From assembly GCA_045545335.1 (NCBI GenBank), contig JAZQAS010000130.1, positions 1 through 60,900 of the forward strand: a stretch of DNA of 60,900 nt, read 5' to 3'. The number at the start of each line of letters is the position of its first letter. The stretch's first letter is position 1. The stretch comes from Candidatus Avispirillum sp. (GTDB taxonomy: Bacteria; Bacillota; Clostridia; Oscillospirales; CAG-272). The notes beneath the pieces were generated by a model, which was given only the letters and a program-made list of their open reading frames with translations, made no database searches and had not been told where the DNA came from. Of the stretch, positions 456 to 55,057 are shown piece after piece. The position numbers were made by a program, and so were the translations under genes.

Positions 456-461
456 GTTTTT

Positions 462-10530: not shown

Positions 10531-10559
10531 GCCCAAGGTGTCATTTTGACACCTTGGGC
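10531..10559 (+). terminator. hydA terminator-type hairpin
   Basis: GCCCAAGGTGTC-atttt-GACACCTTGGGC, 8 nt after the hydA stop. The T-run is weak (CAGTTTTA). Confidence 0.6.
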
Positions 10560-10735
10560 AGTTTTATTCGCCTTCGGCGAGTGATATTGCTTCGCAGTGG
10601 TATTATGCTTCGCATAGTGTTATTGCCTTCGGCAGTTTATAAGGCGAATAAAATAACACTGAAACCGTAAGGTTTCAATAACACTGTTGCTGTAGGCAAT
10701 AATATCACTCCGACGAAGTCGGAATATCACTAAAA
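10560..10735 (+). repeat. Word-hairpin array, ATATCAC dialect (copy 2)
   Basis: It starts CAGTTTTATTCGCC-ttc-GGCGA. The left arm carries GTGATATT/GTGGTATT/GTGTTATT words and the right arm carries AATAACACT/AATATCACT words. The words are separated by hairpins such as GAAACC-gtaa-GGTTTC and CCGAC-gaa-GTCGG. Confidence 0.8.
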
Positions 10736-10775
10736 CTAATTAACTTAGTGCTACGTTATTTTAGAGGTGGTAATA

Positions 10776-11126
10776 ATGGCTGACAGCGTTTTGAGAGATA
10801 AAGCCAAACAATTTGCAAAAGATATTGTATTTGCTTGCCGTGAGATGAAAGCCGAACATAAAGAAGCTGTATTGGTAAATCAATTACTTCGTTCTGCAAC
10901 ATCTATTGCTGCAAATTTGCATGAAGCACAGTATGCACAGGGAACAAAAGACTTTATTTCTAAGCTTGAAATAGCGCAAAAAGAATGTTATGAATCTGAG
11001 TTTTGGTTAGAGCTTCTTTTTGAAACAGATTGTTTGAATGCAGACAAGTACCGAGTGTTACAAAATGATTGTGGTGCTATCAGAAGAATGCTGATATGCT
11101 CTTTAAAAACAATAAAGTCAAAATAA
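10776..11126 (+). CDS. Four-helix-bundle protein (23S rRNA intervening-sequence protein family)
   Basis: The motif LLRSATSIAANLHEAQ..SKLEIAQKECYESEFWLELL is characteristic of this family. The region is AT-rich, and ATG 10776 follows RBS AGAGGTGG. Confidence 0.7.
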   Translation: MADSVLRDKAKQFAKDIVFACREMKAEHKEAVLVNQLLRSATSIAANLHEAQYAQGTKDFISKLEIAQKECYESEFWLELLFETDCLNADKYRVLQNDCGAIRRMLICSLKTIKSK

Positions 11127-18706: not shown

Positions 18707-20083
18707 TTATTTCTTTCCTTTCTTTTTCTTTGCTGATATATTGTTTTTTAATTTTTGAATCATAGAAAGCTTCTTTTCGCCCGCCCCGCAGTACGTGTCC
18801 ATATCTGCCGTTATATCGGGAACGGGGGTGTCGCGGTCGATGAATATCTCGTCTGCGTCAAGCTCCTGTACCTTTGGGGGATCGGCCTTGTAGAACTCGG
18901 TGCTCCTCGGCATATTGCGCTTTTTCAGGCGCCTCTCGGAGGACTGCTTCACAAGGGCGTAAATAACGGCAACCGCAGGAACGCCGATGACCATACCGCC
19001 AAAGCCGAAGAAGCCGCCGCAGACCACAACTGCGATGACCACCCAAAGGGCGCCGATGCCGATGGAGTCTCCGAGGATCGCAGGGCCGATAACGTTTCCG
19101 TCAAGCTGCTGGATGAGAAGCACGATGATGATGAATATGAGAGTATACTCGGGAGAGGAGATAAGAACGATAAGCCCGCCGATAACGCCGCCGATGATGG
19201 GGCCGAAGGTGGGAACCACGTTCGTCACTCCGAGGATAACTGCAAGAAGGGGATAATAGGGCACCTTGACGATCCAGAGAACTATAAAGGAAAGAATGCC
19301 GATTATGAGAGAGTCGATTATCTTTCCCACGATGAAGCCGCCGAAGGTGCGGTGGGTGTAGCGCATAAGGCGCACGGTGTTGAGATAAGCGCGGCGGGAA
19401 ACGAGAGAAGCGAGAAGCTTCTTTGCCTGAGCGCATATCTTTTCCTTTGTTGCAAGGAAGTAGAAGGCAACGAATATGCCCATCAGTATGTTAAGCACCT
19501 CGCCGACAAAGCGACTGCCTATGGAAACGATGTCGTTGAAGCGCTGACTCAGAAAGCTGACGGTGTTGAGGATAATCTCCTTGAAGTTCAGAGTGATATC
19601 GTGGTCTGCAAGAAGCTCTGTAAGGGTGGAGTAGCTCTTGTTGAAGAAGAGCTCGGAATACTTGACGGTGAACTCGTCAGCAAGGACCTGAATGTTTGTA
19701 ACGTAGCCGTTGATGTGGCCGACGAAGTCGTTAACGCTTGACACGGTCTGAGGAACGACAGCGTAAGCGATGACCGCAAGAAAGGCAAGCATGGTGACCG
19801 TGGTGAGGATAAGAGAGAGTGTGCGGCGAAGAGGGTGCATATCTCTCTTGGCCTTCTTGAAGGTCAGGAGCTTTCGCTCGTAGAAATTCATAACGGGGTT
19901 GCAAAGATAGGCAATGATAAATCCGTAAGTAAAGGGTGCAAGAACGGCAAAAACCTTTCTGACAGCGCCGTAAACTGCGGAAAAATTCAGGATAGCCAGA
20001 ATTATAACGGCGGAAAAGACGATGACAGCCGCGGCATACAGCGCAACGGTCGCATATTTCTCGTTTTTCTTGAAATTGAACAT
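18707..20083 (-). CDS. AI-2E family (PerM/UPF0118) transporter
   Basis: It is a multi-TM protein with the conserved [25 protein letters not shown] region. The start was set to ATG 20083, behind GGAAAGGAG; the ORF track starts at 20107. It ends 1 nt from the metK start. Confidence 0.85.
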
Positions 20084-20160
20084 AATACTCCTTTCCGTAT
20101 AATACAATAAAATATCCTACTCATTATATTTTATAACATATAAAAGCCGCGGTCAATAGC

Positions 20161-20203: not shown

Positions 20204-20293
20204 TATCCATCATTCAGCCTTTAGCACCTTGCCTTTGCGGTAGGTTGCTGTGCGGTCCCAGGGGCTGTCCCTTGCGCACTCTTTATGGTCAAG
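20204..20293 (-). promoter_or_regulatory. SAM-I-clan (S-box-like) riboswitch aptamer candidate
   Basis: The minus strand reads CUUGACCAUAAAGAGUGCGCAAGGGACAGCCCCUGGGACCGCACAGCAACCUACCGCAAAGGCAAGGUGCUAAAGGCUGAAUGAUGGAUAAAG. This matches the S-box core AGAG..AGGGA..GCCC..GA..GCAACC..GGUGCUAA, but P4 appears minimal or absent. metK is downstream. Confidence 0.55.
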
Positions 20294-23996: not shown

Positions 23997-24054
23997 AGTG
24001 GCTCAATTGTTAAGATCATTCGTCTAATTTTGGTTTGACGGGGGAAGAGAAAAA

Positions 24055-24196
24055 GTGATGAGCACTTCGTGCGCGATGAGACCTTCGGTCACGATGGTTT
24101 CCCTACGGGAAAACGATGATATGATTGCCTATATAACTTGCCGCAGGCAATCATCGTTTGGCTAAGCCAATTATCGTTTGCCGAAGGCAATCATAG
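24055..24196 (-). repeat. Word-hairpin array, CGATGAT dialect (copy 1, inverted relative to 55082 and 56061)
   Basis: Its reverse complement aligns with the arrays at 55082-55225 and 56061-56204. The words are ATCATCG/TCATC with hairpins GACC-gaa-GGTC and TTCCC-gta-GGGAA. It lies downstream of the 3' end of the minus-strand ABC-2 gene, after two small hairpins (24198-24240). Confidence 0.8.
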
Positions 24197-27121: not shown

Positions 27122-28405
27122 ATGATGTATACAGGAAAAATGGATAAAAAGACTCTTGTGACGGTGACGGTCATAGCCCTTGCTTTCATTATAGTCTTTG
27201 CCTCTGTTGCCGTGGTCATCGGTGTGATCCTCGCAAGGGACGGGGAGCCTGAAGATCCTCAGGTCAGCGCAAAGGAGCTTGAGAGCATGAACGGCGTCTG
27301 GATCGCCACCGCGACCAATATAGACTTTCCCTCAAGGCCCGATCTCACAAAGGCAGAGCTTAAGGCAGAGCTTGACTCTATCGTTGATACCTGCTCAAAA
27401 GCAGGCCTTGATACTATCTTTTATCAGGTGCGACCCGCGTCGGATGCTATGTATAAGTCCGAGATCTTTCCCGTTTCAAAATATCTGAGCTCAGACAGAA
27501 GACTGACTCTTGATACCCTTGAGTATCTTATTAAAAAGGCGGGAGAAAAGGGGATAAAGGTCCACGCGTGGATAAACCCCCTGAGAGCGGCAGTGGGCGG
27601 AGATATCTCCGATCTGCCCGTTGGCCATCCCGCAAGAGATAACCCCGAATGGGTCGTCAAGTATGCAGACGGAAAGCTCTATTACGATTGCGCCATCCCC
27701 GAGGTGCGAAAGCTCGTTTGCGACGGTATTTCGGAGATCATCGCGAAATACGACGTTGCAGGCATCGTCTTTGACGATTATTTCTATCCCTATCCCGTTT
27801 ATGAAACGGACGAGGCAGGCAATAAGACCGTCGTTGATTTTGACGACAGCGGATCCTTTAATAAATACGGCAAGGATTATGACGATAAGGGCGACTGGCG
27901 CCGACATAACGTTGATCTTCTCATAGAGGAGTCATATAAGGCGGTAAAGAGCGCCGACGGGAGCTGTGTGTTCGGCGTAGCCCCCTTCGGCATATGGAAG
28001 AACGGCTACGGCGACGAAAGCGGAAGCGCAACAAGAGGCGCGCAGTCATATTTCGATATCTATTGCGATACCCTCGCCTGGGCCGATGGCGGCTACGTTG
28101 ATTATATCGCCCCTCAGATATATTGGAGAGCAGAGGAGAGCGCCGCATCCTATACGGCCCTTTGCGATTGGTGGGATATGATGCTCAAAGAGCGGGGCGT
28201 GCCCTTTATCATTTGCCACGCGGCCTATCGCTACGACGGCTGGGAGGCACCATCCGGTATTATGACCTCTCAGGTTGAGTATGCAAAAACTAAAGAGAGC
28301 TATAAGGGCAGCATCTTCTACGGCTACGAAGAGATAGCCACCAATAAGGAGGGCATTGCCGACGAGCTTTCCGACCTATACGTAACCGAAACCGAAGAAG
28401 AATAG
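27122..28405 (+). CDS. Glycoside-hydrolase-like family 10 protein (GHL10/DUF187, YngK-like), membrane-anchored
   Basis: It has an N-terminal TM segment. GVWIATATNIDFPS and IKVHAWINP are typical of GHL10. Confidence 0.75.
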   Translation: MMYTGKMDKKTLVTVTVIALAFIIVFASVAVVIGVILARDGEPEDPQVSAKELESMNGVWIATATNIDFPSRPDLTKAELKAELDSIVDTCSKAGLDTIFYQVRPASDAMYKSEIFPVSKYLSSDRRLTLDTLEYLIKKAGEKGIKVHAWINPLRAAVGGDISDLPVGHPARDNPEWVVKYADGKLYYDCAIPEVRKLVCDGISEIIAKYDVAGIVFDDYFYPYPVYETDEAGNKTVVDFDDSGSFNKYGKDYDDKGDWRRHNVDLLIEESYKAVKSADGSCVFGVAPFGIWKNGYGDESGSATRGAQSYFDIYCDTLAWADGGYVDYIAPQIYWRAEESAASYTALCDWWDMMLKERGVPFIICHAAYRYDGWEAPSGIMTSQVEYAKTKESYKGSIFYGYEEIATNKEGIADELSDLYVTETEEE

Positions 28406-28410
28406 AATAA

Positions 28411-28843
28411 AAAACGGTACGCAGGAAAATCGGAGTTATCCTTAGCGGAGAATTTTGAACTTTTTTAATTCTCGTTAAGAACCGGCATCTCATTTGTAAG
28501 TACAAATGCAGTAGGGCGGTAGCCCAAACCCACTAACAACAGAAAAGAGAAGATTCGTATATTGCAACGAGTCTTCTCTTTCTTTCTTGTCTGTTAAGTG
28601 ATATACTGACGTTCGTCAGCGTGATATTTTCTTTTGAAAATCCCTCGCCTATGGCGAGATATTTCAAAAAGAAAGTGATATTAAGCCCTAAGGGCTTAGT
28701 GATATTCTATTCGCCGAAAACTCGCGTAGCGAATATCACTCGGCGTAAGCCGAATATAACTGCGGAGCAATATAACTCGCCGTAGGCGAATAGAGTTGCG
28801 TGATACTCCGTTAAGAGTATCACGCTAAAGCGTACCGTTTTTT
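28411..28843 (-). repeat. Composite nested-hairpin intergenic element, copy B (inverted homolog of 60-455)
   Basis: The split stem is AAAACGGTACGC (28411-28422) and GCGTACCGTTTT (28830-28841). Inside are the tail at 28423-28545, an AGAGAAGA hairpin at 28546-28579, a GTGATAT/AATATCAC word array at 28594-28797, and a hairpin at 28798-28825. Confidence 0.8.
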
Positions 28844-28877
28844 GATCGTATTTGTTTTAAAACAGAAGGCAAAATCG

Positions 28878-28906
28878 TTGAAAAAAAGGCAATAATATGG
28901 TATAAT
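28878..28906 (+). promoter_or_regulatory. Sigma-A promoter
   Basis: TTGAAA, 17-nt spacer, extended -10 TGgTATAAT. Confidence 0.55.
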
Positions 28907-35239: not shown

Positions 35240-35970
35240 TAAAGATACCTCTTATAGAGACCAATATGCCCGACGTATCTCTGATAGCGCAGAAGAACGG
35301 GCTTATAGACCCAAACGGAGTGGGCGGGGAGGCGCTCGTTAAGAGCGATGGCAGCGGCATCGTGAAAAATACCTATACCCCCCCATATTCTGCGGCGTAT
35401 ACCAAGGCCCCCGCATCCCTTGCGGGAGAGGTGAGCGCGGCAAAGGGCGAGCTTGACGCCTGGAAAAGCTCACGCCCCGCAGAGTACGTACCCGTCTACG
35501 GCAAGGAGATCTCAGAGCTTATGAAAAGCCTCGTGGGAGACGATTTCAGCTATGATGGGGCAAAGGACCCTCTTTTCGCTCTCCTGCGTGACGAGAGCAT
35601 AAAGAACGCCCGCCTTGCAATGGAGGATACGGTTGGTAAGGCCGTCTCCCTCAGCGGCGGATATATGAATAGCTTTGCCCAGAGCGCAGGCCAGCAGGCT
35701 TATAGCGACAGAATGTCCGATCATCTTGAATATATCCCCTCCCTTTACGAGGCGGCATACGAGAGATATTCCGATGAAAAGGACCGCCTCTACGATGCGG
35801 TAAAGCTTTATTCAAGCCTTGAGGACTCGGAGTTTGACCGTTATACGGATATAATGAAGCAGTATCTTTCCGAGGGCGAGCTTCTCTCGGATATTTATAG
35901 CTCCCTTCAGAAGGAGGAGTTTGACAGATTTCTTGATTATTCTGAGCTTATGATAAAGGCAACCAAATAA
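35236..35970 (+). CDS. Hypothetical protein (last gene of the capsid module)
   Basis: 244 aa, translationally coupled and followed by a terminator. Confidence 0.5.
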   Translation: MIKIPLIETNMPDVSLIAQKNGLIDPNGVGGEALVKSDGSGIVKNTYTPPYSAAYTKAPASLAGEVSAAKGELDAWKSSRPAEYVPVYGKEISELMKSLVGDDFSYDGAKDPLFALLRDESIKNARLAMEDTVGKAVSLSGGYMNSFAQSAGQQAYSDRMSDHLEYIPSLYEAAYERYSDEKDRLYDAVKLYSSLEDSEFDRYTDIMKQYLSEGELLSDIYSSLQKEEFDRFLDYSELMIKATK

Positions 35971-36095
35971 AAAGCCGCATACAACAATGAAATCCGCCGA
36001 TTATTTTCGGCGGATTTCTGCTTTTTTCTGTATTTTTTCGCTAAACGAAATATTATATATTTTGCGGCTTTTGTTCTGCGCCTTTCTCGACAGCC
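35969..36095 (-). repeat. Nested-hairpin element Z (copy 1; doubles as a bidirectional terminator)
   Basis: Its reverse complement aligns with 60689-60812: CTGTCGAGAAAGGCGCAGAACAAAAGCCGC..GAAATCCGCCGA-loop-TCGGCGGATTTC..GCGGCTTTTT. The outer stem is AAAGCCGC/GCGGCTTT and the inner hairpin is at 35989-36018. Confidence 0.65.
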
Positions 36096-36100
36096 TTTTT

Positions 36101-38317
36101 TTACGGATAAATACCGAGACGGCGCGAGCCGTGCTCGTAGAACTGAGTCATGGGGTTAACGTCATAGATGCATTCTGCGGGGAGCACGTAGGAGTCAACT
36201 GAGGAAATGGGAACGTTGTTTTCCTTTATGTAGTTGTACATCCAGGAGTATCTCTCGCAGTAGAGCCTGCGGTTACCGTTGTTCACGAACCATTCGGTGT
36301 GGAGAGAGGAGAGACCCATAAAGTCGCAGCTGACGATAATTGTGGAAATGCGTCTTCTCTGAGTAGCGTTATGTGCCTTGTTGTAGGCAGAGGTGAGAAG
36401 GCCTCTCATATATTCGTAGTTTTCTCCGAGATATTCGTAGGACATCATATCGCCGGGGCGGTCAAAGTTATTGATAAAGCAGGTACCGCACTGATCTCCC
36501 GCCTCAGTGCACATCTCAATGTATTCAAAGAGCTCGTCAACACCGTCGCCGTAGTAGAAGTAGAGGAACTCGCGAATGATATCGTTGTATTCCTCGTAGG
36601 TCATATCGGGGTTCCAGAGAAGCTTGGAATAAACGTATGCCTTCAGGGCCTCGAAGTTGTTGTCAGCTCCGCCGCCCTCGTAGTAGATACCGGTAACTCC
36701 GCATTCCTCAATGAGATACTTCGTGTTGTAGTAGAGGTTGGGAATGTTGGGGCACCAGGAGAGGTAGTAGTGATAGTTAACGGGGTATACCCAGAACCAT
36801 ATCTCAGCGCCCGTTTCGCGGCAGAGGTTGCCCCAGTAGGTGAGAGCCTCGATATCGTCGTCGTTCTTCATACCGTTGAGCTGGCCGCCCTTTTCGTAGC
36901 ACTCCTCCATACCGAGGATGTGGTTGTGGCAGCTGACTCCGCAGTAGAGGATAACAAGGTTGTCCTCAGGCTTGATGGTCTTGGGGAAGTCCTTTGCGTA
37001 AACGATACCGTAAAGGCGGATGCCGGGGTAATAGTCCTGAATGTCGATAACCGCACGGTTATAAAGGCTGAGGTAAAGACCGGAGTAGCCCTCGACCTTT
37101 GAGATCTTCGTGCAGTTGCGGCAGGTGCAGTAGTTTTGGTTGTCGCAGATGGAGAAGGAGAAAACGGTGAGCCCTTCCTTGTAGTGAAGGTCGTTGCCCC
37201 AGTCCATGGACATAAGGTTGCAGTTGAGCATTCCCTCGAAAAGGGTGTTGTAATCCTTGTTGCTTGTAGCGCAGGGCTGCCAGCTGTAGGGATCGGGGAA
37301 GGTGCCTGAGGCAAATCTTGCGGCGCGAATCTCAGCGTCGGTCATTCCCGTCGTATCCTCGGGAACCTTGCCTGTGCCCATCTTCCAGTATTCGTAGAAG
37401 GAGTGCGCGTTGCTGTAGAGGGGGCCCGTCAGCGCGCCGTATCTCATATCGTCGTAGGCGTAGAGCTGAGTGCCGTTGAGCTTGTGGGCGAAATAGTGCT
37501 GGAAGGCACCGTCGTTGCCGTAGGTCTGGCAGGAGTGGCGGAAGGTGAGACGGGGGCTGTATTCATAAAGGGTGCCCTCGGGAATATCCACGTATCTTGC
37601 CTTATAGAGATAGGTCTCCTCGTTTGAATAGAAGCGGAAGCCGAGATAGTTTTCAAGTATCTCAAAAACGGAGTACATAGTGCCGCGGTACGTACCGTAG
37701 ATAAAGAGGTCTCCGTCCTTGACCTCGTATTTGAGGCCGTCCGTTCCGTATTTCTGACCCTCCTCGGAGAAGAGGTCTATCTGGCGGATGCGGATCATTT
37801 TCTCAGTCGTCTTGTTATCCTCGCCGAAAACGATGGGAAGGTCGATGGCAGTAGCCTTCTCAACGTACTTTTTAAGGTTGAGCGCGGCAAAGTAAGAGTT
37901 GTCGTTGTCCGTTGCATCAGCGTTCAGAACGATAGAGTAGCTTGAAATGGGGTTGCCTCCGACGGTAAGGCTGTAGACCTGTACCTGTCTGCCGTTCACG
38001 GTTTCAAAATCAGCAGCAGTTTTTGCGCCCGAGAGGATGAGCTTTAAGGAATAGGAGTCCTTTGCGCCCGCGTCGCGGTCAGCGTCAAGGTCCGCCGCCT
38101 CAAGGTCTATCTCATATCCGTCAAGACCTGCAACGTGGGCCTTTAAGGAAAGAGCGTCCTTTCCGTCAACAGCTCCGTCGCCGTTCACGTCTCCAAGCTG
38201 AAAGCCCTCGTCGTAAACGAATTTCTGACTGAGCCTGAAATCGTAGAGAGCAAAAGCGGAAACGGTCATTGAAAGAAGCATGGTGACCGTGATAATTAAA
38301 GCAATTATCTTTTTCAT
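36101..38317 (-). CDS. Secreted dockerin-containing protein, DUF4838-like putative glycoside hydrolase
   Basis: It has a signal peptide and a two-segment dockerin (GDVNGDGAVDGKDALSLK; DLDADRDAGAKDSYSLK). A conserved Cys cluster FSICDNQNYCTCRNC is present. The DUF4838 assignment is from memory. Confidence 0.75.
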   Translation of the reverse strand: MKKIIALIITVTMLLSMTVSAFALYDFRLSQKFVYDEGFQLGDVNGDGAVDGKDALSLKAHVAGLDGYEIDLEAADLDADRDAGAKDSYSLKLILSGAKTAADFETVNGRQVQVYSLTVGGNPISSYSIVLNADATDNDNSYFAALNLKKYVEKATAIDLPIVFGEDNKTTEKMIRIRQIDLFSEEGQKYGTDGLKYEVKDGDLFIYGTYRGTMYSVFEILENYLGFRFYSNEETYLYKARYVDIPEGTLYEYSPRLTFRHSCQTYGNDGAFQHYFAHKLNGTQLYAYDDMRYGALTGPLYSNAHSFYEYWKMGTGKVPEDTTGMTDAEIRAARFASGTFPDPYSWQPCATSNKDYNTLFEGMLNCNLMSMDWGNDLHYKEGLTVFSFSICDNQNYCTCRNCTKISKVEGYSGLYLSLYNRAVIDIQDYYPGIRLYGIVYAKDFPKTIKPEDNLVILYCGVSCHNHILGMEECYEKGGQLNGMKNDDDIEALTYWGNLCRETGAEIWFWVYPVNYHYYLSWCPNIPNLYYNTKYLIEECGVTGIYYEGGGADNNFEALKAYVYSKLLWNPDMTYEEYNDIIREFLYFYYGDGVDELFEYIEMCTEAGDQCGTCFINNFDRPGDMMSYEYLGENYEYMRGLLTSAYNKAHNATQRRRISTIIVSCDFMGLSSLHTEWFVNNGNRRLYCERYSWMYNYIKENNVPISSVDSYVLPAECIYDVNPMTQFYEHGSRRLGIYP

Positions 38318-38528: not shown

Positions 38529-40739
38529 ATGAAAAGAATCATAGCGGCGGTCATATTTTCGGCAATGCTGTTCACCTCTCTTGCAGGTACGGTGTCTGCC
38601 CTTGATCTGCCATTTGTTCAGGATTTTGAAATGGACGAGACCTTCATCCTCGGCGACGTAAACGGCGATAAGTCGGTGGATGGCAAGGATGCTCTTTCCT
38701 TAAAGGCGTTCGTTGCAGGCCTTGAGGGCTATGAGGTGGAGCTTGATGCGGCAGACTTTGATGCTGATAGCGATGCAAGCGCAAAGGACTCCTATTCCTT
38801 AAAGCTCATCCTCTCAGGAGCTAAAACTGCCGCCGATTTTGAGAATGGCGAGCAGATATATAAGCTGACCATCGGCGGCAACGATATAAAGGAATATTGC
38901 GTGGTTCTCCCCGAGGGAACGAGCGAGGATTCAAATATTCAGTTTGCATATCTCAATCTTGTTCAGTATATCGAAAAGGCAACGGGCTATCGCATTCCCA
39001 TGTGCTACGGCGCCCCCACAACTGAGAAGGCCATATATTTCAATCATATAGACCTTTGGAGCGAGGAAGGTCAGCGCCTTGGCGTTGAGGGCCTGAGATA
39101 TGAGGTGCGTGACGGAAACCTTTGCGTTTGGGGAACCTATCGCGGCAATGCATACGCAGTATTTGATATTCTTGAAAAGTATATCGGTGTGCGCTTTTTG
39201 TCAAATACCGCTACCTTTATCTTTAAGTCAAGATGCGTGGATATCCCCGAGGGGCTTTTTGTTGAGTATATCCCTAAGATCACCTTCCGCTATGCAGGCC
39301 AGACCTACGGCGGTGGCGACAGCGTAAAATACCATTATTATCCCCATAAGCTGAACGGCTCTCAGCTTTATCAGTACGATTCTCCCTTCTACGGAACAAA
39401 AACGGGCCCCGAATTCATCAATGCCCATTCCTTCGGCTATTATTGGGCGATGGGAACGGGAACGATGCCCGATGAGAGCTACGGCACTCTCTCCGAGAGA
39501 TATCAGTACAAGCACGACTCAGGCGAGATCGTTGATGAATATAAGTGGAACCCCTGCGCGACTGATAAAAAGGTATACGATATCATCTTCTCGGGACTCA
39601 TAGATACCACCCTTATGGTTATGAGCTGGGGAAGAGTATACCGCTTTGAGGAGGACCTGAGCGCAATGTCCTTCTCCATTTGCGATAATCAGAATTATTG
39701 CAGCTGCCGCTACTGCGCAAAGACGGCTGTGAAAGAAAAGGAGGGCTATTCGGGCCTCTACGTGCAGATGACCAATAAGGCCTGCGATGACGTGCAGGCA
39801 TATTTCCCCGGCTGCAAGCTTTATATGATCCTCTACGATCATACCATCCCCGCCACCATCAAGCCCCACGATAAGATAATCCTTATGTATTGCGGAACGG
39901 GCTGTGATAATCATATCCTCGGTATGGAGGAGTGCTATGAGAAGGGCGGACAGCTCAATCATTCAAGCAATAAGGGAGATATAACGGCGCTTCCCGCCTG
40001 GGGCGAGCTTTGCCGCGAAACGGGAGCGGAGCTTTGGTTCTGGGTCTATGCGGTCACCTATCACTATTATATGATAGGCTGTCCCAATATCCCCAATATC
40101 TATTACAATCTCAAATGGATGATAGATAATGCAAACGTAACGGGCGTGTATTACGAGGGCGGCGGACGCACCTATAATTTCGAGACCTTGAAGGCTTACC
40201 TTGCAGTCAAGCTTATGTGGGAGCCTCATATGACCTACGATGAGTTCGTGGGGCACGCAAAGGAATATCTCTATATGTGGTATGGCGACGGCTATGAGGA
40301 GCTTTGGGAGTATATCCTTATGCAGACCGAAGCGGGAGATCAGTGCGGCACCTGCTTTATCAATAACTTCGACCGTCCCGGCGATATGTATTCCTACGAA
40401 TATATGGGCGAAAACTATGAGTATATGAGAGGCCTTCTCGTGTCGGCCTATGAGAAAACGAAGAATAACGCTCAGGAAAACAGGGTCAATACCCTCATCG
40501 TATCCTGCGACTTTATGGGCCTTTCCTCTCTCCATACGGATTGGTACTTAAACGGAGATACCGAATCAAGACAGCTTTATATGGAGCGCTACCTCTGGAT
40601 GCATACCTATATAAAGAACCATAACCTGAGAATATTCAGGGATAATACTTACCTGTTCCCCGAGACTGTTGATTATGAGACCAATCCCATGATCCAGTTC
40701 TACGAGCACGGCTCACGCCGTCTCGGTATTTATCCTTAA
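38529..40739 (+). CDS. Secreted dockerin-containing protein, DUF4838-like (paralog, divergent orientation)
   Basis: It is collinear with 36101-38317 over its full length and has the same Cys cluster (FSICDNQNYCSCRYC). The C-terminus is identical: QFYEHGSRRLGIYP. Confidence 0.75.
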   Translation: MKRIIAAVIFSAMLFTSLAGTVSALDLPFVQDFEMDETFILGDVNGDKSVDGKDALSLKAFVAGLEGYEVELDAADFDADSDASAKDSYSLKLILSGAKTAADFENGEQIYKLTIGGNDIKEYCVVLPEGTSEDSNIQFAYLNLVQYIEKATGYRIPMCYGAPTTEKAIYFNHIDLWSEEGQRLGVEGLRYEVRDGNLCVWGTYRGNAYAVFDILEKYIGVRFLSNTATFIFKSRCVDIPEGLFVEYIPKITFRYAGQTYGGGDSVKYHYYPHKLNGSQLYQYDSPFYGTKTGPEFINAHSFGYYWAMGTGTMPDESYGTLSERYQYKHDSGEIVDEYKWNPCATDKKVYDIIFSGLIDTTLMVMSWGRVYRFEEDLSAMSFSICDNQNYCSCRYCAKTAVKEKEGYSGLYVQMTNKACDDVQAYFPGCKLYMILYDHTIPATIKPHDKIILMYCGTGCDNHILGMEECYEKGGQLNHSSNKGDITALPAWGELCRETGAELWFWVYAVTYHYYMIGCPNIPNIYYNLKWMIDNANVTGVYYEGGGRTYNFETLKAYLAVKLMWEPHMTYDEFVGHAKEYLYMWYGDGYEELWEYILMQTEAGDQCGTCFINNFDRPGDMYSYEYMGENYEYMRGLLVSAYEKTKNNAQENRVNTLIVSCDFMGLSSLHTDWYLNGDTESRQLYMERYLWMHTYIKNHNLRIFRDNTYLFPETVDYETNPMIQFYEHGSRRLGIYP

Positions 40740-44016: not shown

Positions 44017-45111
44017 ATGGCAGTAAAGTTTCTCGAGGCGGCAGGCGCCGCATTTGCGTTTGCGGCAGACCCTGTGAACTATGAGAGATGTGATATCGGA
44101 CATATCAACGACACGTACTTTGTAGATTGCGGCGAGGGCAATCCCCGCTATCTTCTCCAGAGAGTAAATACAAGCATCTTCAAGGACCCCATCAAGCTTA
44201 TGGAGAATATGAAGGGCGTATGCACACACGTAGCAAAGAAGGTTTGCGAGGCAGGCGGCGATACAGACCGCGAGGTAAGAAAGATCATCTTCACAAAGAC
44301 GGGAGAGGATTATTTCGTAGACCCCGACGGATGCTATTGGAGAGCCTTTCTTGAGATCGATAACGTAGTTTCCTATAATTCCCCCGATTCTCCCGAGCTT
44401 TTCTATAAGAGCGCGGTAGCCTTCGGTAAGTTCTTCAATCAGCTTGCAGACTATCCTGCAGAAACTCTCCACGAGACCATCCCCAATTTCCATAACTCCG
44501 TAAGCCGTATGAACGATTTCAAGGCGGCAGTAGCTGAGGATAAGATGGGCCGTGCCTCTGAGATGAAGGAAGAGATCGAGTTTGCTCTTTCCAAGGAGCC
44601 CCAGTGCTCTTATATCCTTGACAGACTGGCAGACGGCCGCTTCAAGCTTTGCGTAACTCATAACGACACAAAGCTCAATAACGTTCTTATGGACGCTGAG
44701 AGCGGCGAGGGCGTATGCATCATCGACCTTGATACCGTAATGCCCGGAAGCGTTCTTTACGACTTTGGCGATGCTATCCGCTTCGGCGCATCCAGCGCTG
44801 CAGAGGACGAGACCGACCTTGATAAGGTATACGTAGATCTTGAGATGTTCGAGACCTTCGTAAAGGGCTTCGTCGGCGAGCTTCACGATTCCATGACCGA
44901 GGATGAGATCCTCTCACTTCCCATGGGCGCATATCTTATGACTCTTGAAACAGGTATCCGCTTCCTCGGCGACTACCTGAACGGAGACGTATATTTCCAT
45001 ATCCGCTATCCCGAGCATAACCGCGACCGCGCGAGAAACCAGCTCAAGCTTATCGCAGATATGGATAAGAAGATGGCAGAAATGCAGGAGATCGTAAAGA
45101 AGTATCTCTGA
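44017..45111 (+). CDS. nahK: N-acetylhexosamine 1-kinase-like phosphotransferase (APH/NahK family)
   Basis: It is collinear with my recollection of Bifidobacterium NahK: HINDTY, RVTHNDTKLNNVLMD, IIDLDTVMPGSVLYDFGDAIRFGASS and YPEHN. Confidence 0.7.
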   Translation: MAVKFLEAAGAAFAFAADPVNYERCDIGHINDTYFVDCGEGNPRYLLQRVNTSIFKDPIKLMENMKGVCTHVAKKVCEAGGDTDREVRKIIFTKTGEDYFVDPDGCYWRAFLEIDNVVSYNSPDSPELFYKSAVAFGKFFNQLADYPAETLHETIPNFHNSVSRMNDFKAAVAEDKMGRASEMKEEIEFALSKEPQCSYILDRLADGRFKLCVTHNDTKLNNVLMDAESGEGVCIIDLDTVMPGSVLYDFGDAIRFGASSAAEDETDLDKVYVDLEMFETFVKGFVGELHDSMTEDEILSLPMGAYLMTLETGIRFLGDYLNGDVYFHIRYPEHNRDRARNQLKLIADMDKKMAEMQEIVKKYL

Positions 45112-45142
45112 TAAAGAAGATAAAATCCGAACGGAGACCGTT

Positions 45143-46237
45143 ATGGAAGTAAAATATCTTGATCTGGCAGGAGCGGCATTTGAGTTTGCCGCTCCTCCCG
45201 TCAGTTTTAAAAGGTGCAGCGCAGGTCATATAAGCTATACCTTTTTTGTTGATTGCGGAGAGGGAAATCCCGAGTATATCCTTCAGAAGCTGAACACTGA
45301 GATATTCAGCGATCCCGAGGCCCTCATGTCCAATATCAAGGGCGTATGCGCCCATATGGCAAAAAAGGTCAAAAAAGAGGGGGGCGACCCTCTCAGAGAA
45401 GTGAGAACAGTGATCACCACCAAGGACGGAGAGGATTATTTCGTAGACCCTGAGGGCGGATACTGGAGAGCATTTCTCGGAATAGATAACGTAATATCCT
45501 ATGAGCATCCCGAGTCGGCAGAGATATTTTATGAGAGCGCCGTGGCATTTGCAAGATTTGCCCGCCGCCTTAGCGATTATCCCGCAAAGAGCCTGTATGA
45601 GATCATCCCCGATTTTCATAATACGAAAAAGAGGATGGAGGATTTCAAGGCCGCGGTAGAGAGGGATAAGCTGGGCCGTGCCCGCGAGGTCGCCGCAGAG
45701 ATAGATTTTGCTCTCTCAAAGGAGCCTATGTGCGGTTATATAACGGACGGACTTGCCATGGGCCGCTTCAAAACGAGAGTCACCCATAACGATACAAAGA
45801 TAAGCAACGTGCTTATGGATAAGGAGAGCGGCCGCGGCATCTGCATTATCGACCTTGATATAGTAATGCCGGGAAGCCTGCTTTACGATTTCGGCGATGC
45901 TATCCGCGTGGGCGCGTCAACTGCCCCCGAGGATGAGAAGGAGCTTTCAAAGATCGGACTTGACCTTCATATGTTCGAGGCCTTCGTTCGCGGATTTGTT
46001 GAAGAGCTTTCAGGCCATATCACCGAGGAGGAGATACTGTCTCTTCCCATGGGCGCCTATCTTATGACCCTTGAAACGGGTATCCGTTTCCTTGGCGATT
46101 ATCTTGATGGCGACGTTTATTATCATATCTCCTATCCCGAGCATAACCGCGACCGTGCAAGAAACCAGCTTTGCCTCCTTTCCGATATGGGAGCAAAGAT
46201 CGGCGCAATGCAGGAAATAGTAAGAAAGTATATCTGA
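45143..46237 (+). CDS. nahK: N-acetylhexosamine 1-kinase-like phosphotransferase (tandem paralog)
   Basis: It has the same length (364 aa) and motifs (HNDTKISNVLMD, IIDLDIVMPGSLLYDFGDAIRVGAST). Confidence 0.7.
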   Translation: MEVKYLDLAGAAFEFAAPPVSFKRCSAGHISYTFFVDCGEGNPEYILQKLNTEIFSDPEALMSNIKGVCAHMAKKVKKEGGDPLREVRTVITTKDGEDYFVDPEGGYWRAFLGIDNVISYEHPESAEIFYESAVAFARFARRLSDYPAKSLYEIIPDFHNTKKRMEDFKAAVERDKLGRAREVAAEIDFALSKEPMCGYITDGLAMGRFKTRVTHNDTKISNVLMDKESGRGICIIDLDIVMPGSLLYDFGDAIRVGASTAPEDEKELSKIGLDLHMFEAFVRGFVEELSGHITEEEILSLPMGAYLMTLETGIRFLGDYLDGDVYYHISYPEHNRDRARNQLCLLSDMGAKIGAMQEIVRKYI

Positions 46238-48665: not shown

Positions 48666-49793
48666 ATGAAAACAAAAACTCCCAAGGTAGAGCACGGCAT
48701 AGTACATCGTTATCCCTCTGACCATAACTGCTTCAGATATAACGCGTGGCCCACCGTTTGTAAGGATGACCGCGGCGTCCTTTATGCAACCGCATCAGGA
48801 CTCAGAATGTCTCACGTAGACCCCTGCGGCAAGAACGTAATGTGGGTAAGCTTTGACGACGGAGATAGCTGGACTCCCCCCATCATCGTAAACGACTCCA
48901 ATTATGACGACCGCGATACGGGTATCCTTTATCTTGGAAACGGTAAGATGCTTATGTCCTGGTTTACAAGCGTGTATGCGAACGATCTTGAGCATATGCA
49001 GGAGCAGGAGTGGCTCCATCCCTCCGATAAGGCAATGATGGCAGGCTGGACACAGTATTGGAGAACTCTTCCCAAGGAGTCCCGTAAGGATGAGTGGGGC
49101 AGCTTCGTAAAGCTCTCCGATGACTACGGCGTGACCTGGGGCGAAAATATCAGAGTGCCCGTGTCAAGCCCCCACGGCCCCTGCGTTGCAAAGGACGGCA
49201 CTATATATTACCTCGGTAAGACCATGAATTTCGAGCACCCCTACGGCCCCGACGTTGAGTGCCATAAGAGCTTGGACGGCGGACATACCTGGGAGTATTG
49301 CGGAACAGTTCCCAATTTTGAAAACTTCCTTCCCAATCAGGTGCACGAGCCCCATATAGTAGAGCTCCCCTCCGGTAGACTTCTCGGTGCAATGAGAGTC
49401 AACGGCAGAAATGAAAAGCCCGTTGATACAACGTATCTCACCTATTCCGATGATAAGGGCAAGACCTGGTCCACACCTAAGTGCTGCGGAGTAGACGGTA
49501 TGCCTCCTCACTTTATGATGCATTCCTCAGGCGCTCTCATCCTCAGCTATAGCTGCAGAAACGAGCCCGACCGCTGTATGTCCGAGCGCGCCGTTATCAG
49601 CTATGACGAGGGCGAGACCTGGAGCGATGAGTATATCCTTGATGATAGGATCAATATGGAAAAGCAGAGAGATATGGGCTATCCCGCAACGGTAGAGCTC
49701 TCCGACGGCTCTCTCCTCACCCTTTATTATCAGGCGCTTCCCGACGATTGGCATACAAGTATTCTTTATACTAAATGGAGAATAGAGGAATAA
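48666..49793 (+). CDS. BNR/Asp-box repeat beta-propeller protein (sialidase-like glycoside hydrolase), cytoplasmic
   Basis: The Asp-box motifs are SFDDGDSW, SDDYGVTW, SLDGGHTW, SDDKGKTW and SYDEGETW. There is no signal peptide. Confidence 0.75.
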   Translation: MKTKTPKVEHGIVHRYPSDHNCFRYNAWPTVCKDDRGVLYATASGLRMSHVDPCGKNVMWVSFDDGDSWTPPIIVNDSNYDDRDTGILYLGNGKMLMSWFTSVYANDLEHMQEQEWLHPSDKAMMAGWTQYWRTLPKESRKDEWGSFVKLSDDYGVTWGENIRVPVSSPHGPCVAKDGTIYYLGKTMNFEHPYGPDVECHKSLDGGHTWEYCGTVPNFENFLPNQVHEPHIVELPSGRLLGAMRVNGRNEKPVDTTYLTYSDDKGKTWSTPKCCGVDGMPPHFMMHSSGALILSYSCRNEPDRCMSERAVISYDEGETWSDEYILDDRINMEKQRDMGYPATVELSDGSLLTLYYQALPDDWHTSILYTKWRIEE

Positions 49794-50914
49794 TGAAGAT
49801 AATCAAAGAGAACTTTGAAACGGGCGTAGTCCATCGCTATGCGGGCGATCATAACCCCTTCAAGTATAACGCCTGGCCCTCCCTTGCTGTTGGCGATAAC
49901 GGCTGGCTCTATGCCGTAGCGTCAGGCCTCAGAATGTCCCACGTAGACCACGCAGGCAAGAATATTATGTGGGTAAGCTTTAACGAGGGCAAGACCTGGA
50001 CTCCCCCCATCGTAGTTTATGACTCAAAGATAGATGACCGCGACCCCGGTATCCTTAACCTCGGCGGCGGAAAAATGCTTATGTCCTGGTATACCGATAA
50101 CTATGAGGGCTACCTTGACCATATGCAGGAGCAGACCTGGCTCCCCGCAGGTGATAAGGCAATGATGAAGGGATACAGCGACTATTGGCATACCCTTTCT
50201 GATGAGGATTATAACGCAGAGAAGGGAAGCTACGTCAGCCTTTCAAAGGATAACGGCGTGACCTGGGGCGACCCTGTTCGCCTGAACGTTCATTCTCCCC
50301 ATGGCCCCTGCCGCTGTAAGGACGGCACTCTCGTGTATATGGGCAAGAGATTTGAGCCCGAATACGCGTATGATAACGATTTCGTCTGCTATACAAGCTC
50401 AGATGACGGTCAGACCTGGGAATTTGCAGGAACAGTCCCCCCCTGCGAGGATGCAGACTACGGCCAGATGTACGAGGCTCATCAGGTAGAGCTCCCCTCG
50501 GGAAGAATTCTCGGCGGTATGCGAGTAAACGGCAGAAAGGACGCGCCCGCAGACTCGGTTTACGTAACCTATTCCGACGATAAGGGTAAGACCTGGAGTG
50601 TCCCCAAGTGTATCGGAGTAGACGGAATGCCTCCCCATTTTATGGTGCATTCATCAGGCGCCGTAATATGCAGCTATTCCTGCCGTACCTGGGGCAATAT
50701 CACCGAACGTGCCGTTGTCAGCTACGACGGCGGAGAGACCTGGGAGGAGGACTACGTCCTCAACGATAATATCAATATGGAAAAGCAGAGAGATATGGGA
50801 TATCCCGCAACGGTGGAGCTTCCCGACGGCTCACTCTTTACTATCTATTATCAGGCCCTCCCCGAGGATTGGCACACAAGCATCCTATGGACAAAGTGGA
50901 GCCTTAAGAAATGA
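49793..50914 (+). CDS. BNR/Asp-box repeat beta-propeller protein (tandem paralog)
   Basis: It has the same Asp-box series (SFNEGKTW..SYDGGETW). The start ATG 49793 overlaps the previous stop (TAATG). Confidence 0.75.
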   Translation: MKIIKENFETGVVHRYAGDHNPFKYNAWPSLAVGDNGWLYAVASGLRMSHVDHAGKNIMWVSFNEGKTWTPPIVVYDSKIDDRDPGILNLGGGKMLMSWYTDNYEGYLDHMQEQTWLPAGDKAMMKGYSDYWHTLSDEDYNAEKGSYVSLSKDNGVTWGDPVRLNVHSPHGPCRCKDGTLVYMGKRFEPEYAYDNDFVCYTSSDDGQTWEFAGTVPPCEDADYGQMYEAHQVELPSGRILGGMRVNGRKDAPADSVYVTYSDDKGKTWSVPKCIGVDGMPPHFMVHSSGAVICSYSCRTWGNITERAVVSYDGGETWEEDYVLNDNINMEKQRDMGYPATVELPDGSLFTIYYQALPEDWHTSILWTKWSLKK

Positions 50915-50957: not shown

Positions 50958-51590
50958 ATGGAGAAAGAATTTTATAACAGAAAAACAACACGACTAAAGA
51001 ATTATAAATATGATACAGGAGTGTATTTCGTCACGATCTGTATGGAAGATAGGAAACGGATACTATCCAAAATTTCCAAGATTAACGTATGTCAAACAGA
51101 GGAAACAATCGATCCAAATCTTGTAGGGGAGCCGCTTGCTGCTCCCGAGAACGAACGTCTTGAACAAATGTTACGTCAACAAAATGATCCGATATCTTTT
51201 TCTAATAATTATAAGGTCATTCTAACGCCTATAGGTGAGATCGTAAAAGAACAGATCCTTGAATTAGAAAATCGATATGGTAACGTAGAAATTAAGAGCT
51301 ACGTTATAATGCCCGACCATATACATATTCTGATATATTTACGTATGGATGAGGGAGCAGCAAGCGGCTCCCCTACATTGTCAACCATAATTCGTGCATT
51401 TAAATCTATAACATCCAGAAAGTGCAAGACTATGTTTGGAATAGAAAATATGTTTCAACGTTCATACGCCGACCATATCATCCGTAATCGCGAGGACTAC
51501 GAAAAACACCTGAAATATATCCACGAAAACCCGATGCGGTGGTATTATAAAAATATGAAATTGGGAGAAAAGACTGATATTGAAATTTAG
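50958..51590 (+). CDS. IS200/IS605-type Y1 (HUH) transposase homolog, RAYT-like
   Basis: It is 210 aa from ATG 50958. The HUH motif is MPDHIHILI, the catalytic-Tyr region is RSYADHIIRN, and the N-terminal part is YDTGVYFVTIC. The gene is AT-rich and the ORF-track 5' extension was rejected. Confidence 0.8.
   Translation: MEKEFYNRKTTRLKNYKYDTGVYFVTICMEDRKRILSKISKINVCQTEETIDPNLVGEPLAAPENERLEQMLRQQNDPISFSNNYKVILTPIGEIVKEQILELENRYGNVEIKSYVIMPDHIHILIYLRMDEGAASGSPTLSTIIRAFKSITSRKCKTMFGIENMFQRSYADHIIRNREDYEKHLKYIHENPMRWYYKNMKLGEKTDIEI
51123..51146 (+). repeat. Intragenic REP-like palindrome (left copy)
   Basis: GTAGGGGAGCCGCTTGCTGCTCCC is the perfect reverse complement of 51353-51376. It encodes VGEPLAAP. 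Confidence 0.75.
51353..51376 (-). repeat. Intragenic REP-like palindrome (right copy)
   Basis: GGGAGCAGCAAGCGGCTCCCCTAC encodes GAASGSPT, just after the HUH motif. Confidence 0.75.
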
Positions 51591-55053: not shown

Positions 55054-55057
55054 AAAG

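Follow-up and report, generated by a model that had tools for sequence, protein, structure and literature searches.

Group IIC introns recognise intrinsic terminator stem-loops by their shape and insert just downstream of them, and the insertion sequences IS1397 and ISKpn1 insert in the loops of REPs. IS30 and some subgroups of IS5 produce duplications of 2–3 bp, and Tn4451 of clostridia provides a GA-flanked example of overlap exchange. Insertion of IS110-family elements in REPs is also described (PMC1525189, PMC12288879). In the IS607 family of serine transposases, exchange takes place over an identical 2-bp overlap that lies at the termini and in the target, a circular form occurs, and the overlap sets the polarity of insertion (PMC6188088, PMC4058570); the family is described as having no inverted repeats and almost no target preference (PMC6188088). 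Among short bacterial repeats, SPRITE of S. pneumoniae carries a terminator-like motif (PMC10969869). Weinberg et al. (2010; PMC2864571) reported Gut-1 (Rfam RF01706) from human gut metagenomes as a candidate non-coding RNA that stands on its own.

Here we analyse a 60,900-nt stretch of a Candidatus Avispirillum genome (the window), in which two related inserts, copies A and B, each lie between the arms of an intrinsic terminator. We put the probability that A and B are two diverged copies of a non-coding, non-autonomous mobile element family of gut Oscillospirales at roughly 0.8, and we are highly confident that mobile insertion into terminator loops placed them there.

Copy B and its empty site

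Downstream of the GHL10 gene, the sequence is AAAAAACGGTACGCA at 28408–28422 and GCGTACCGTTTTTT at 28830–28843. Within these stretches the arms ACGGTACGC (28414–28422) and GCGTACCGT (28830–28838) are complementary and pair across 407 nt, as the original prediction of a terminator split by about 400 nt had it. The features of this locus are as follows.

28408–28422, plus strand: left half of the GHL10 terminator that hosts the element, an A-run and the arm ACGGTACGC, identical in sister strain L001 at 1503–1511
28423–28429, plus strand: left remnant of the original loop, AGGAA, and the dinucleotide AA (28428–28429; TT in element orientation); the loop in L001 is AGGAAAAA
28430–28826, top strand on minus: element copy B, 397 nt, a clean 399-nt indel relative to L001
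28430–28451, minus strand: inverted repeat at the 3′ end of B (element strand: TCTCCGCTAAGGATAACTCCGA), which repeats the loop and 5′ arm of hairpin H0 imperfectly and in inverted form
28474–28543, minus strand: conserved tail core, with two small hairpins, GGGC..GCCC and CATTTGTA..TACAAATG, then GATGCCGGTTCT; the most conserved block across 49 copies
28544–28581, both strands: internal AGAGAAGA hairpin of 15 bp with a T-rich run on both strands, a predicted terminator-like site whose pairs are kept in 49/49 copies
28588–28797, minus strand: word/hairpin array of small hairpins and GTGATAT-type words, then the reverse-complement word ATATCAC; Gut-1 match at 28728–28798, stems with compensatory changes
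28798–28826, minus strand: hairpin H0 (GCGTGATACTC TTAAC GGAGTATCACGC), the 5′ end of the element, containing the 5′ inverted repeat
28827–28845, plus strand: second dinucleotide AA (28827–28828), last loop base (28829), right arm GCGTACCGT (28830–28838) and T-run

In the sister strain L001, whose GHL10 protein is 98% identical to that of the window, the orthologous site reads ACGGTACGC AGGAAAAA GCGTACCGT, an intact hairpin without the element (9-bp stem, 8-nt loop, TTTTTT) that lies 9 nt after the GHL10 stop codon. Flanking sequence of the two strains is 98.2% identical over 1300 nt and 98.9% identical over 187 nt without gaps, and the indel between them is exactly 399 nt, the length of insertion B including one flanking dinucleotide. 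This dinucleotide is present once in the empty loop, and B has 2 extra nucleotides relative to L001. Orthologous intergenic regions had been expected to show filled and empty alternatives, and they do so here, with the site empty in L001 and filled in the window; the insertion at B is real, and of an unusual kind, because the sister strain keeps the uninterrupted hairpin. The gene downstream of B has its own predicted promoter-like site (28878–28906).

An orthologous empty allele was seen for B only, in one strain. The empty state of L001 could also have arisen by precise excision.

A hairpin near the far end of the window had previously been read as the intact, “empty” version of the same terminator:

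60654–60684, minus strand: uninterrupted terminator with the same 11–13-bp stem as the host terminator of B, another loop (CCCGC) and other flanks

It consists of AAACGGTACGCAA, the loop CCCGC and TTGCGTACCGTTT, with its T-run on the minus strand. The common stem stands up in the alignment, but the reading as the empty allele of B does not: beyond the stem, neither the loop nor the flanks show any relation to those of B, and the hairpin, as a separate locus with a loop of its own, is ruled out as that allele. When up to one mismatch was allowed, AAACGGTACGC matched five times in the window against 0.8 expected, a count that 0/100 shuffles reached. In metagenomes, the stem turned up on 98 contigs from ocean, soil and gut, in about 40 contexts unrelated to one another, none of which was the context of L001 or of the 60653 hairpin.

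Copy A and its relation to copy B

Copy A lies near the start of the window, with boundaries drawn by the family rule.

60–74, plus strand: left arm of the host terminator, AAACGGAGACG (60–70), and loop T's, with flanking TT at 73–74
75–438, plus strand: element copy A, 364 nt, comprising H0 (75–104), array (105–275), internal hairpin (286–326), tail core (327–390) and 3′ inverted repeat (416–438)
439–475, plus strand: TT (439–440), loop remnant GGCG, right arm CGTCTCCGTTT (445–455) and T-run

The arms at 60–70 and 445–455 pair and are followed by the T-run, which upholds the claim that A is bracketed in the same way as B. This terminator is common to two convergent genes, one of them encoding MgsA (462–1679, minus strand). 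The cargo of A and B is homologous over its full length, again as claimed, with about 83–84% identity counted over alignment columns and one extra hairpin unit in B relative to A; copy A is 93% identical to a copy from another species, against about 83% to B. A further claim, that the cargo lies in opposite orientation with respect to the split stem, is meaningless, since both stems read A-run and arm, then arm and T-run, on either strand, and B when reverse-complemented has the same layout as A. A search for an empty allele of A among relatives of the MgsA gene (95%, 92% and 89% identity) found none; these loci are uninformative because their intergenic terminators differ altogether.

The target is the loop of an intrinsic terminator

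Insertion takes place in the short, T-rich loops of intrinsic terminator hairpins, mostly bidirectional ones between convergent genes, and the host arms remain intact on either side of the element. Perfect arms of 9–17 bp, at fixed distances and with a different sequence at every locus, occur at 50 of the 84 loci with enough flank, and perfect arms of at least 11 nt at 40/84 true loci compared to 7/829 mismatched-flank controls. The median folding energy is −20.5 kcal/mol for reconstructed empty sites and −7.8 kcal/mol for mismatched flanks, and the insertion point falls within the predicted hairpin loop in 43/53 of the reconstructed sites. Duplex energies of the flanks, taken over windows that include the element ends, are a poor control, and the exact-arm and reconstructed-site tests were used instead. 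The arms begin 0–30 nt past stop codons, convergent gene pairs flank 26/42 sites, and the position matrix of the flanks has an outer A-run and an outer T-run, with T-rich reconstructed loops. In L001 and across the family, the host hairpins thus fit predicted intrinsic terminators, with a GC-rich stem, a short loop and a T-run just after a stop codon. In the literature on MITEs, we found no insertion specificity for terminator loops. The loop preference could partly reflect selection rather than an enzyme.

Predicted folds that include the insert have z-scores of −11 and −14 with the host arms paired in the minimum-energy structure, and the 400-nt insert may fold with these arms still paired. 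More likely, however, termination would be taken over by the internal hairpin of the element.

Element ends and the flanking dinucleotide

The terminal inverted repeats are imperfect and about 20 nt long, and the 5′ end is embedded in the perfect 12-bp hairpin H0. By hand alignment of consensus ends, the 5′ end GCGTGATACTCTTAACGGAG and the reverse complement of the 3′ end, GCGTGTTGTTCTTATCGGAG, match at about 17/22 positions, compared to 12/21 when the ends are aligned as direct copies. In variant 2 the two ends change together. The last three bases at the 3′ end show little conservation, and the element boundaries are base-identical at dozens of unrelated sites.

The same dinucleotide stands on both flanks in 48/53 copies (TT in 37, TA in 7, AT in 4 and AA in none). 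It is predicted by the 5′ tip of the element: GTAG goes with TT (5/5), GCAG with TA or AT (5/5), TGCG with TA (4/5) and AGCG or GGCG with TT (29/31). In variant 1, part of this association hinges on how the boundary is placed within runs such as TTA. Given its lineage specificity, the dinucleotide may represent an overlap used in recombination and not a target-site duplication.

The cargo

Three parts make up the cargo: a word/hairpin array, the internal hairpin, which is followed by a T-rich run on each strand, and a tail of about 65 nt that hardly varies. The array matches Gut-1 (RF01706) with 45.2 bits in B and 47.3 bits in A (104–174), both just below the gathering score of 50, which two other arrays in the window pass (54.3 and 51.3 bits); at the homologous position, 9/20 related loci score 51–62 bits. 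When Rfam was scanned permissively (E up to 10 for B and up to 1 for A), nothing but Gut-1 rose above chance level, and the tail matched no family.

The stems of the array co-vary, one pair being CG in 31, AU in 15 and UA in 2 copies. Words of the first and second half are reverse complements of each other in every family, but those of the first half drift without compensation in the element family, and the consensus fold does not use them. Array units have been lost or gained by recombination between words (loci L042, L104 and L117). At L105, the same ends and tail accompany other words, TCGATAT and ATATCGA, with a different stem where the internal hairpin sits. Words and ends assort independently of each other, from which we infer that the array is cargo and does not belong to the machinery of transposition. 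The internal AGAGAAGA hairpin looks like a bidirectional terminator, and it would probably substitute for the split one, which would make insertions nearly harmless.

Family, spread and mobility

A scan with the tail pattern places the element family at no fewer than 118 loci in species-representative MAGs of gut Oscillospirales, with 2–5 loci per MAG among the matches listed, two copies in the 61 kb of the window, and a length of about 360–410 nt across the family. Copies at different sites in different species are 97–99% identical, whereas copies within one genome share 78–84%. The insert is conserved at 81% on average across loci whose arms are unrelated and whose sites are non-orthologous. 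Many element copies are positioned at contig ends.

Among 49 copies there is no conserved reading frame, the longest stop-free stretches lying in differing frames and strands with no conserved start. An all-against-all comparison of flanking ORFs at the loci listed gave no recurrent neighbour gene, and searches of the window, of the 118 loci (about 0.8 Mb), of PLSDB plasmids and of GenBank phages turned up neither a recombinase nor an autonomous partner or cognate transposase with the same ends. Stray element ends in the loci are almost all the other strand of the palindromic H0. A viral match to H0 was set aside as a coincidence, as it lies inside a GC-rich coding region, and a scan for split terminators with arms 0.5–4.5 kb apart, aimed at an autonomous partner, was too noisy for use. 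The catalytic motif of serine recombinases, R-x-S-T/S-x-x-Q, is absent from six-frame translations of the window and the loci, a result that does not bear on an enzyme encoded elsewhere. An exact look-up of three window proteins matched no record.

Proposed mechanism and alternatives

Our working model is that the element would be moved in trans through a joined-ends (circular) intermediate, which would recombine with a matching 2-nt overlap in the loop in the manner of serine recombinases and transposases. We tentatively favour an exchange of serine-recombinase type, at somewhat below even odds, over a RAYT/HUH enzyme because the 2-nt overlap matches: the dinucleotide is identical at both junctions and matches the target, as serine-recombinase logic requires (48/53 copies), and it is heritable and fixes orientation, being predicted by the 5′ tip and found as TT but never as AA. 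An overlap exchange would explain both its inheritance in element lineages and this polarity. The inverted repeats and the strong loop preference of the element, unlike IS607 as described, count against the serine model. A fuller version, in which a putative recombinase would read DNA shape (a hairpin or cruciform with a T-rich loop) and exchange at the element-carried overlap, with the Gut-1 array and tail acting as a functional RNA, is speculative and rather doubtful as a whole.

Other routes would account for part of these observations. If a DDE transposase (of IS30 or IS5/ISL2 type, for example) mobilised the element as a MITE, cuts staggered by 2 bp would leave a true 2-bp target-site duplication, and the palindromic terminator would be favoured as a target for its bend or symmetry. 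Inverted repeats that extend to the tips, ends that co-vary between variants, identical 2-nt flanks, and MITE-typical size, copy number and lack of coding capacity are all expected of such an element. A target-derived duplication should, however, be independent of lineage, whereas the observed dinucleotide tracks it, and a symmetric transpososome does not predict TT 37 times and AA never; with poorly conserved terminal bases at the 3′ end, and with the roughly 0.8 Mb of loci sequence yielding no transposase whose ends match, we consider a DDE transposase unlikely. The original prediction pointed instead to a single-strand enzyme of the HUH/Y1 class, such as the product of the RAYT-like gene (50958–51590), to which an IS200/IS605-type TnpA may be added; it would recognise hairpins and paste a single-stranded copy into the loop. 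The use of a hairpin loop with an arbitrary stem sequence, the strict polarity relative to the T-rich loop strand, the perfect subterminal hairpin H0 and the presence of a Y1_Tnp gene in the window (E = 1.4e-7) agree with this, and lineage-specific dinucleotides could reflect guide-target pairing of the kind described for IS608 (PMC5934647). The ends are nevertheless inverted copies and not same-strand hairpins, and identical dinucleotides flank both sides. Insertion also follows neither replication strand, with A on plus and B on minus while the GC skew keeps one sign over the window (one replichore), nor gene strand (co-directional contexts 8 vs. 6), both on small samples, and the palindromes inside and beside the RAYT-like gene at 51122, 51353, 52060 and 52205 are of a GTAGGGG type unrelated to H0 of A or B. 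The link between the RAYT-like gene and the element is not supported on these grounds, and we regard a HUH/Y1 route in general as quite improbable.

Two further explanations dispense with a transposition enzyme. Replication could switch templates between hairpin loops through 2-nt microhomology, or the insert could grow in place from a loop. Microhomology would also give a heritable, polar dinucleotide, and the recombination between array words noted above speaks for this reading too; yet base-identical boundaries at dozens of unrelated sites, co-varying inverted ends, which imply recognition or pairing, and nearly identical copies across species, which require transfer, make template switching very improbable, and growth in place offers no way to homologous inserts at unrelated loci. 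The original wording, insertion into or expansion from hairpin loops, can accordingly be narrowed to insertion, as the empty allele of L001, the locus-specific arms and the loop position show, with expansion excluded because homologous copies up to 99% identical occupy unrelated sites in different species. Finally, the locus could be a non-mobile chromosomal gene for a structured RNA, whose 5′/3′ closing helix doubles as a terminator and whose arms differ by compensatory mutation. A and B do differ at five arm positions, all perfectly compensated, their folds are far more stable than those of shuffles with the arms paired, and the array partially matches an Rfam family, Gut-1. The arms are present without the insert in the sister strain, however, they are unrelated between loci while the insert is conserved, the sites are non-orthologous, and the arms are placed as those of ordinary gene terminators, so that a fixed RNA gene is scarcely credible.

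Implications

With mobile insertion as the preferred reading, Gut-1, an orphan Rfam motif since 2010, gains a concrete place in the genome, as one part of a mobile element present in well over a hundred uncultured gut species. The landing-site logic, the loop of any terminator hairpin, is one that we have not found described, and in compact genomes it would offer a near-harmless safe harbour. The 97–99% identity of copies in different species means that the element also marks recent gene flow, and it likely causes contig breaks in gut MAGs. The lineage-specific, polar dinucleotide makes a sharp, testable prediction about the enzyme, which could serve as a tool if its targeting is structural. 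Were a shape-reading recombinase responsible, this would be the first transposon family to land in the loop of essentially any intrinsic terminator, and a mobile small-RNA gene would be spreading between species with its own replacement terminator.

Comparison with known systems

Bacterial MITEs such as Correia, RUP and SPRITE of S. pneumoniae resemble the element in being short, non-coding and multi-copy, with inverted ends, short identical flanks, presence/absence polymorphism and stable hairpin folds. The element differs from them in its target, the loop of an arbitrary intrinsic terminator, in a flanking dinucleotide that is lineage-specific and polar, and in a modular interior (array, terminator and tail) that is strongly conserved across species, with no known parent insertion sequence. 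IS607-family elements and Tn4451/Tn5397 (TnpX/TndX) encode their own recombinase, whereas the element has no linked recombinase gene, carries inverted repeats and targets a hairpin loop.

REP-targeting insertion sequences likewise use extragenic palindromes, including their loops, as targets. REPs form one conserved sequence family per genome, so their targeting is sequence-based or RNA-guided, whereas the target stems of the element all differ and have nothing in common beyond their geometry and a T-rich loop. Like the present case, REPIN/RAYT systems have a pair of inverted ends that form hairpins and one Y1 gene copy per genome; the element, by contrast, is ten times longer than a REP, has a matching flank dinucleotide, and belongs to another sequence family than the palindromes beside the RAYT-like gene. 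Group IIC introns come close in their sequence-independent use of terminator hairpins as a safe landing site, but these are ribozymes of 0.7–2 kb with a reverse transcriptase that insert after the hairpin, whereas the element, at 364–397 nt, sits in the loop, and permissive Rfam scans listed no group II intron family for A or B. The Gut-1 motif corresponds to the first half of the array of the element, and what had been described as a stand-alone RNA is here one module of a larger mobile element, a module that also occurs with other word sequences.

Two element copies within split terminator stems

Directly downstream of the GHL10 gene, 407 nt lie between the two halves (arms) of an intrinsic terminator stem, with an A-run before and a T-run after. 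The arms are perfectly complementary, as the original prediction claimed, and copy A is bracketed in the same way.

27122-28405: GHL10 gene (Pfam GHL10), directly upstream of B's terminator
28430-28826 (-): element copy B, 397 nt
28414-28422, ACGGTACGC, and 28830-28838, GCGTACCGT: arms of B
75-438 (+): element copy A, 364 nt
60-70, AAACGGAGACG, and 445-455, CGTCTCCGTTT, then a T-run: arms of A
60654-60684: third stem site ("60653 hairpin"), AAACGGTACGCAA/TTGCGTACCGTTT, 5-nt loop

The 11-mer AAACGGTACGC is much commoner in the window than in shuffled sequence. The end-to-end homology of A and B was borne out by alignment, with 84% identity after reverse-complementing B, which has one extra hairpin unit relative to A. 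Both copies then read A-run, arm, 5′ hairpin (H0), word array, tail, arm and T-run, and the earlier remark that they lie in opposite orientation relative to the stem is therefore empty.

An empty allele of the B site

The nearest GHL10 relative in the protein collection (98% identical) lies on a 1.7-kb metagenome contig from a sister strain, L001, whose intergenic region reads ...aaaaACGGTACGC AGGAAAAA GCGTACCGTtttttt... and carries an uninterrupted hairpin at B's orthologous site, the one orthologous empty allele in this analysis. In a scripted ungapped comparison flank identity is 98.2% (1300 nt) and 98.9% (187 nt), and a clean block of 399 nt, 28428-28826 of the window, is the sole difference between L001 and the window. 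When filled, the site has the sequence AGGAAAA[397 nt]AAA; the bases AA (TT on the element strand) therefore flank the insert left and right and occur a single time in the empty loop.

The 60653 hairpin, previously taken as the empty version of this site, has the stem alone in common with it in alignment; its unrelated loop and flanks rule it out, and L001 holds the real empty site. B's terminator stem is a generic one that recurs in ~40 unrelated contexts in public metagenomes, and two instances fall within this one 61-kb contig. A ~130-nt inverted repeat (35968-36096 and 60686-60813, 86-94% complementary), with an internal hairpin GAAATCCGCCGA..TCGGCGGATTTC, directly adjoins the 60653 hairpin with one copy and the stop codon of a DUF4838/dockerin gene with the other.

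The element family and its target

A scan of species-representative genomes gave at least 118 loci matching the conserved-tail pattern. Among the matches listed, hosts are nearly all Acutalibacteraceae, Oscillospiraceae or Ruminococcus-like MAGs from ruminant and other guts, many matches fall at the ends of contigs, and a MAG can hold several of them. Among the 84 loci with enough flank, 50 have arms that pair perfectly over 9-17 bp and keep a fixed distance to the element; no two of these 50 share an arm sequence. Arms of at least 11 nt occur at 40 of 84 true loci versus 7 of 829 controls, in which the left flank of one locus was paired with the right flank of another. The median folding energy of reconstructed empty sites (58 nt, with the element and one dinucleotide removed) is -20.5 kcal/mol and that of mismatched flanks -7.8, and predicted folds place the insertion point within the hairpin loop at 43 of 53. 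Together with the L001 allele, the locus-specific arms and loop positions support the original prediction of insertion into hairpin loops.

The arms start 0-30 nt past a stop codon, the setting is convergent at 26 of 42 sites, on their outer sides the family flanks carry an A-run and a T-run, and the reconstructed loops are T-rich and 2-9 nt long. The targets are ordinary intrinsic terminators, mostly bidirectional. Preference for the loop over equally T-rich stem-adjacent tracts may mean that hairpin or cruciform geometry is recognized, or may result from selection. On one 3.5-kb contig (L107), the 3′ end of the upstream gene and the left terminator arm occur twice (790-860 and 3270-3340), one copy carrying the element and the other continuing differently; this doubling could be assembly strain heterogeneity or local duplication.

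Element anatomy

The element starts with a perfect 12-bp hairpin, H0, and ends in an imperfect inverted copy of the first arm and loop of H0 (~17 of 22 positions, hand alignment). In a second variant H0 (GTAGAAATGTTC...) and, to correspond, the 3′ end are changed, with the same array and tail core. The array has small hairpins with UUCG- or GNRA-like loops and stems of varying length, set apart first by GTGATAT words or variants of them and then by the reverse complement ATATCAC, and across 49 copies its stems carry compensatory changes. Its first half is Rfam Gut-1 (RF01706), scoring 47 bits in A and 45 in B, just under the gathering score of 50, and 51-62 bits in 9 of 20 relatives. The original publication of Gut-1 (PMC2864571) presents a candidate non-coding RNA confined to human gut metagenomes. 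A family member at L105 has the same ends and tail with the words TCGATAT/ATATCGA instead; words and ends assort independently, and the array is therefore treated as cargo.

A 15-bp hairpin 3′ of the array, with T-rich runs on both strands (predicted terminator-like site, 28544-28581), looks like a bidirectional terminator and probably replaces the split host terminator; a promoter-like site of the gene downstream of B is predicted at 28878-28906. The ~65-nt tail is nearly invariant across copies and had no Rfam match. Predicted folds of both copies are far better than those of shuffles (z = -11 and -14), with the host arms paired in both minimum-energy structures.

An intergenic motif between two phage genes on IMG/VR contigs L123-L126 (e.g., L123 6700-6840) resembles the tail, running from a GAGAAGA...TCTTCTC hairpin through TGGGTTTGGGC-loop-GCCC to AC.GCATT and a hairpin, and ~11 bases match outside the search pattern. 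Since this motif repeats the logic of the tail, the tail may be an independent module.

Mobility and mechanism

The element moves and crosses species. Between species-level genomes, copies at separate sites reach 97-99% identity, against 78-84% for copies that share a genome; A has 93% identity with a copy from another species and only 83% with B. Truncated copies exist, and there are also copies with array units lost via recombination between words. No conserved reading frame was found in the element, nor a recurrent neighboring gene among the loci, and the element is non-autonomous.

The same dinucleotide stands on both flanks in 48 of 53 copies (TT 37, TA 7, AT 4, AA 0), an agreement never reached with shuffled right-hand flanks in the subset of copies tested. 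It is tied to the element's own 5′ tip:

GTAG: TT, 5/5
GCAG: TA or AT, 5/5
TGCG: TA, 4/5
AGCG and GGCG: TT, 29/31

The dinucleotide is passed on with the element, needs a match in the target, and sets orientation when non-palindromic, three properties that point to strand exchange over a 2-bp overlap. Such exchange is documented for serine recombinases, including IS607-family transposases, whose intermediate is circular and whose overlap is GG (PMC6188088; PMC4058570). End-to-end joining of the element would place the dinucleotide at the center of an inverted repeat (...CACGCT-TT-AGCGTG...), as expected of a crossover site. We give serine-type exchange a probability of roughly 0.35-0.4; no candidate enzyme was found in the window and element loci, and we therefore infer the enzyme class.

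A DDE transposase generating a 2-bp duplication would fit the inverted repeats but is at odds with both the lineage dependence of the dinucleotide and the TT/AA asymmetry, and we regard it as unlikely. The original prediction invoked an HUH/RAYT enzyme, which accounts for polarity and hairpin targeting; the inverted ends and matching flanks are left unaccounted for, no strand bias is seen, and the palindromes of the RAYT-like gene belong to a different family, which makes this route more doubtful still. An enzyme-free mechanism appears very improbable. Serine-type exchange is our preferred reading.

The RAYT-like gene and other features of the window

50958-51590: RAYT-like Y1 transposase gene (Pfam Y1_Tnp, E = 1.4e-7)
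51122-51146 / 51353-51377: perfect 25-nt inverted pair of GTAGGGG-type palindromes within its reading frame
52060-52099 / 52190-52229: 40-nt inverted pair of the same type, downstream
10767-11126: 23S_rRNA_IVP (four-helix-bundle) gene, 3′ of array 10559-10735
20204-20291 (-): SAM riboswitch (RF00162, 48.1 bits), upstream of gene 18707-20107
36101-38317 (-) and 38529-40739 (+): divergent paralogous DUF4838 genes, one with a type I dockerin, forming a 4.7-kb inverted repeat (72-86% identity)
44017-46237 and 48666-50914: two pairs of tandemly duplicated genes (~1126-nt periodicity, 72-79% identity)

The palindromes in and downstream of the RAYT-like gene are unrelated to the A/B element. REP-type repeats and the element do meet, as an association only: L129 (1735-1790) has a GTAGGGGCGACC-type REP with a GCAGAAATG..CATTTCTG hairpin resembling the H0 of the second variant, and L011 and L102 have a GTAGGG-type REP cluster in place of the H0 5′ arm near the element 5′ end.

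Further GTGATAT/GTTATAT word-hairpin arrays, lacking the A/B tail and ends, lie at 10559-10735 and 57262-57332 and exceed the Gut-1 gathering score (54.3 and 51.3 bits); the former starts directly after a strong hairpin that lies 7 nt past the hydrogenase stop codon. Arrays of the same architecture with words ACGATGAT/ATCATCGT occupy 24054-24195, 55077-55215 and 56056-56203, the last two being direct repeats (98% identical over 81 nt). The segment they enclose, with a SLOG-like ORF (55218-55634, -) and an XRE-type HTH ORF (55770-56033), has the look of a small inserted cassette. Words of a third family, AGCTAAAT/ATTTAGCT, occur at 54626-55075 between two different terminator-like hairpins, the second of which (AAAAGCACCCATCGGGTGCTTTTT) recurs inverted at 57326-57367 with arrays on both sides. 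In all families the array starts with a hairpin, then CAG, then the word.

Likeness to known systems

The element works like a MITE and shares most of the defining features, the exception being a known parent element. Neither the MITE reviews consulted nor full-text literature searches yielded a terminator-loop-specific element. Group IIC introns use any terminator, recognized by shape, and IS1397 inserts in the loop of a palindrome; the target logic of both is similar to that of the element, although it is neither a group IIC intron nor IS1397.
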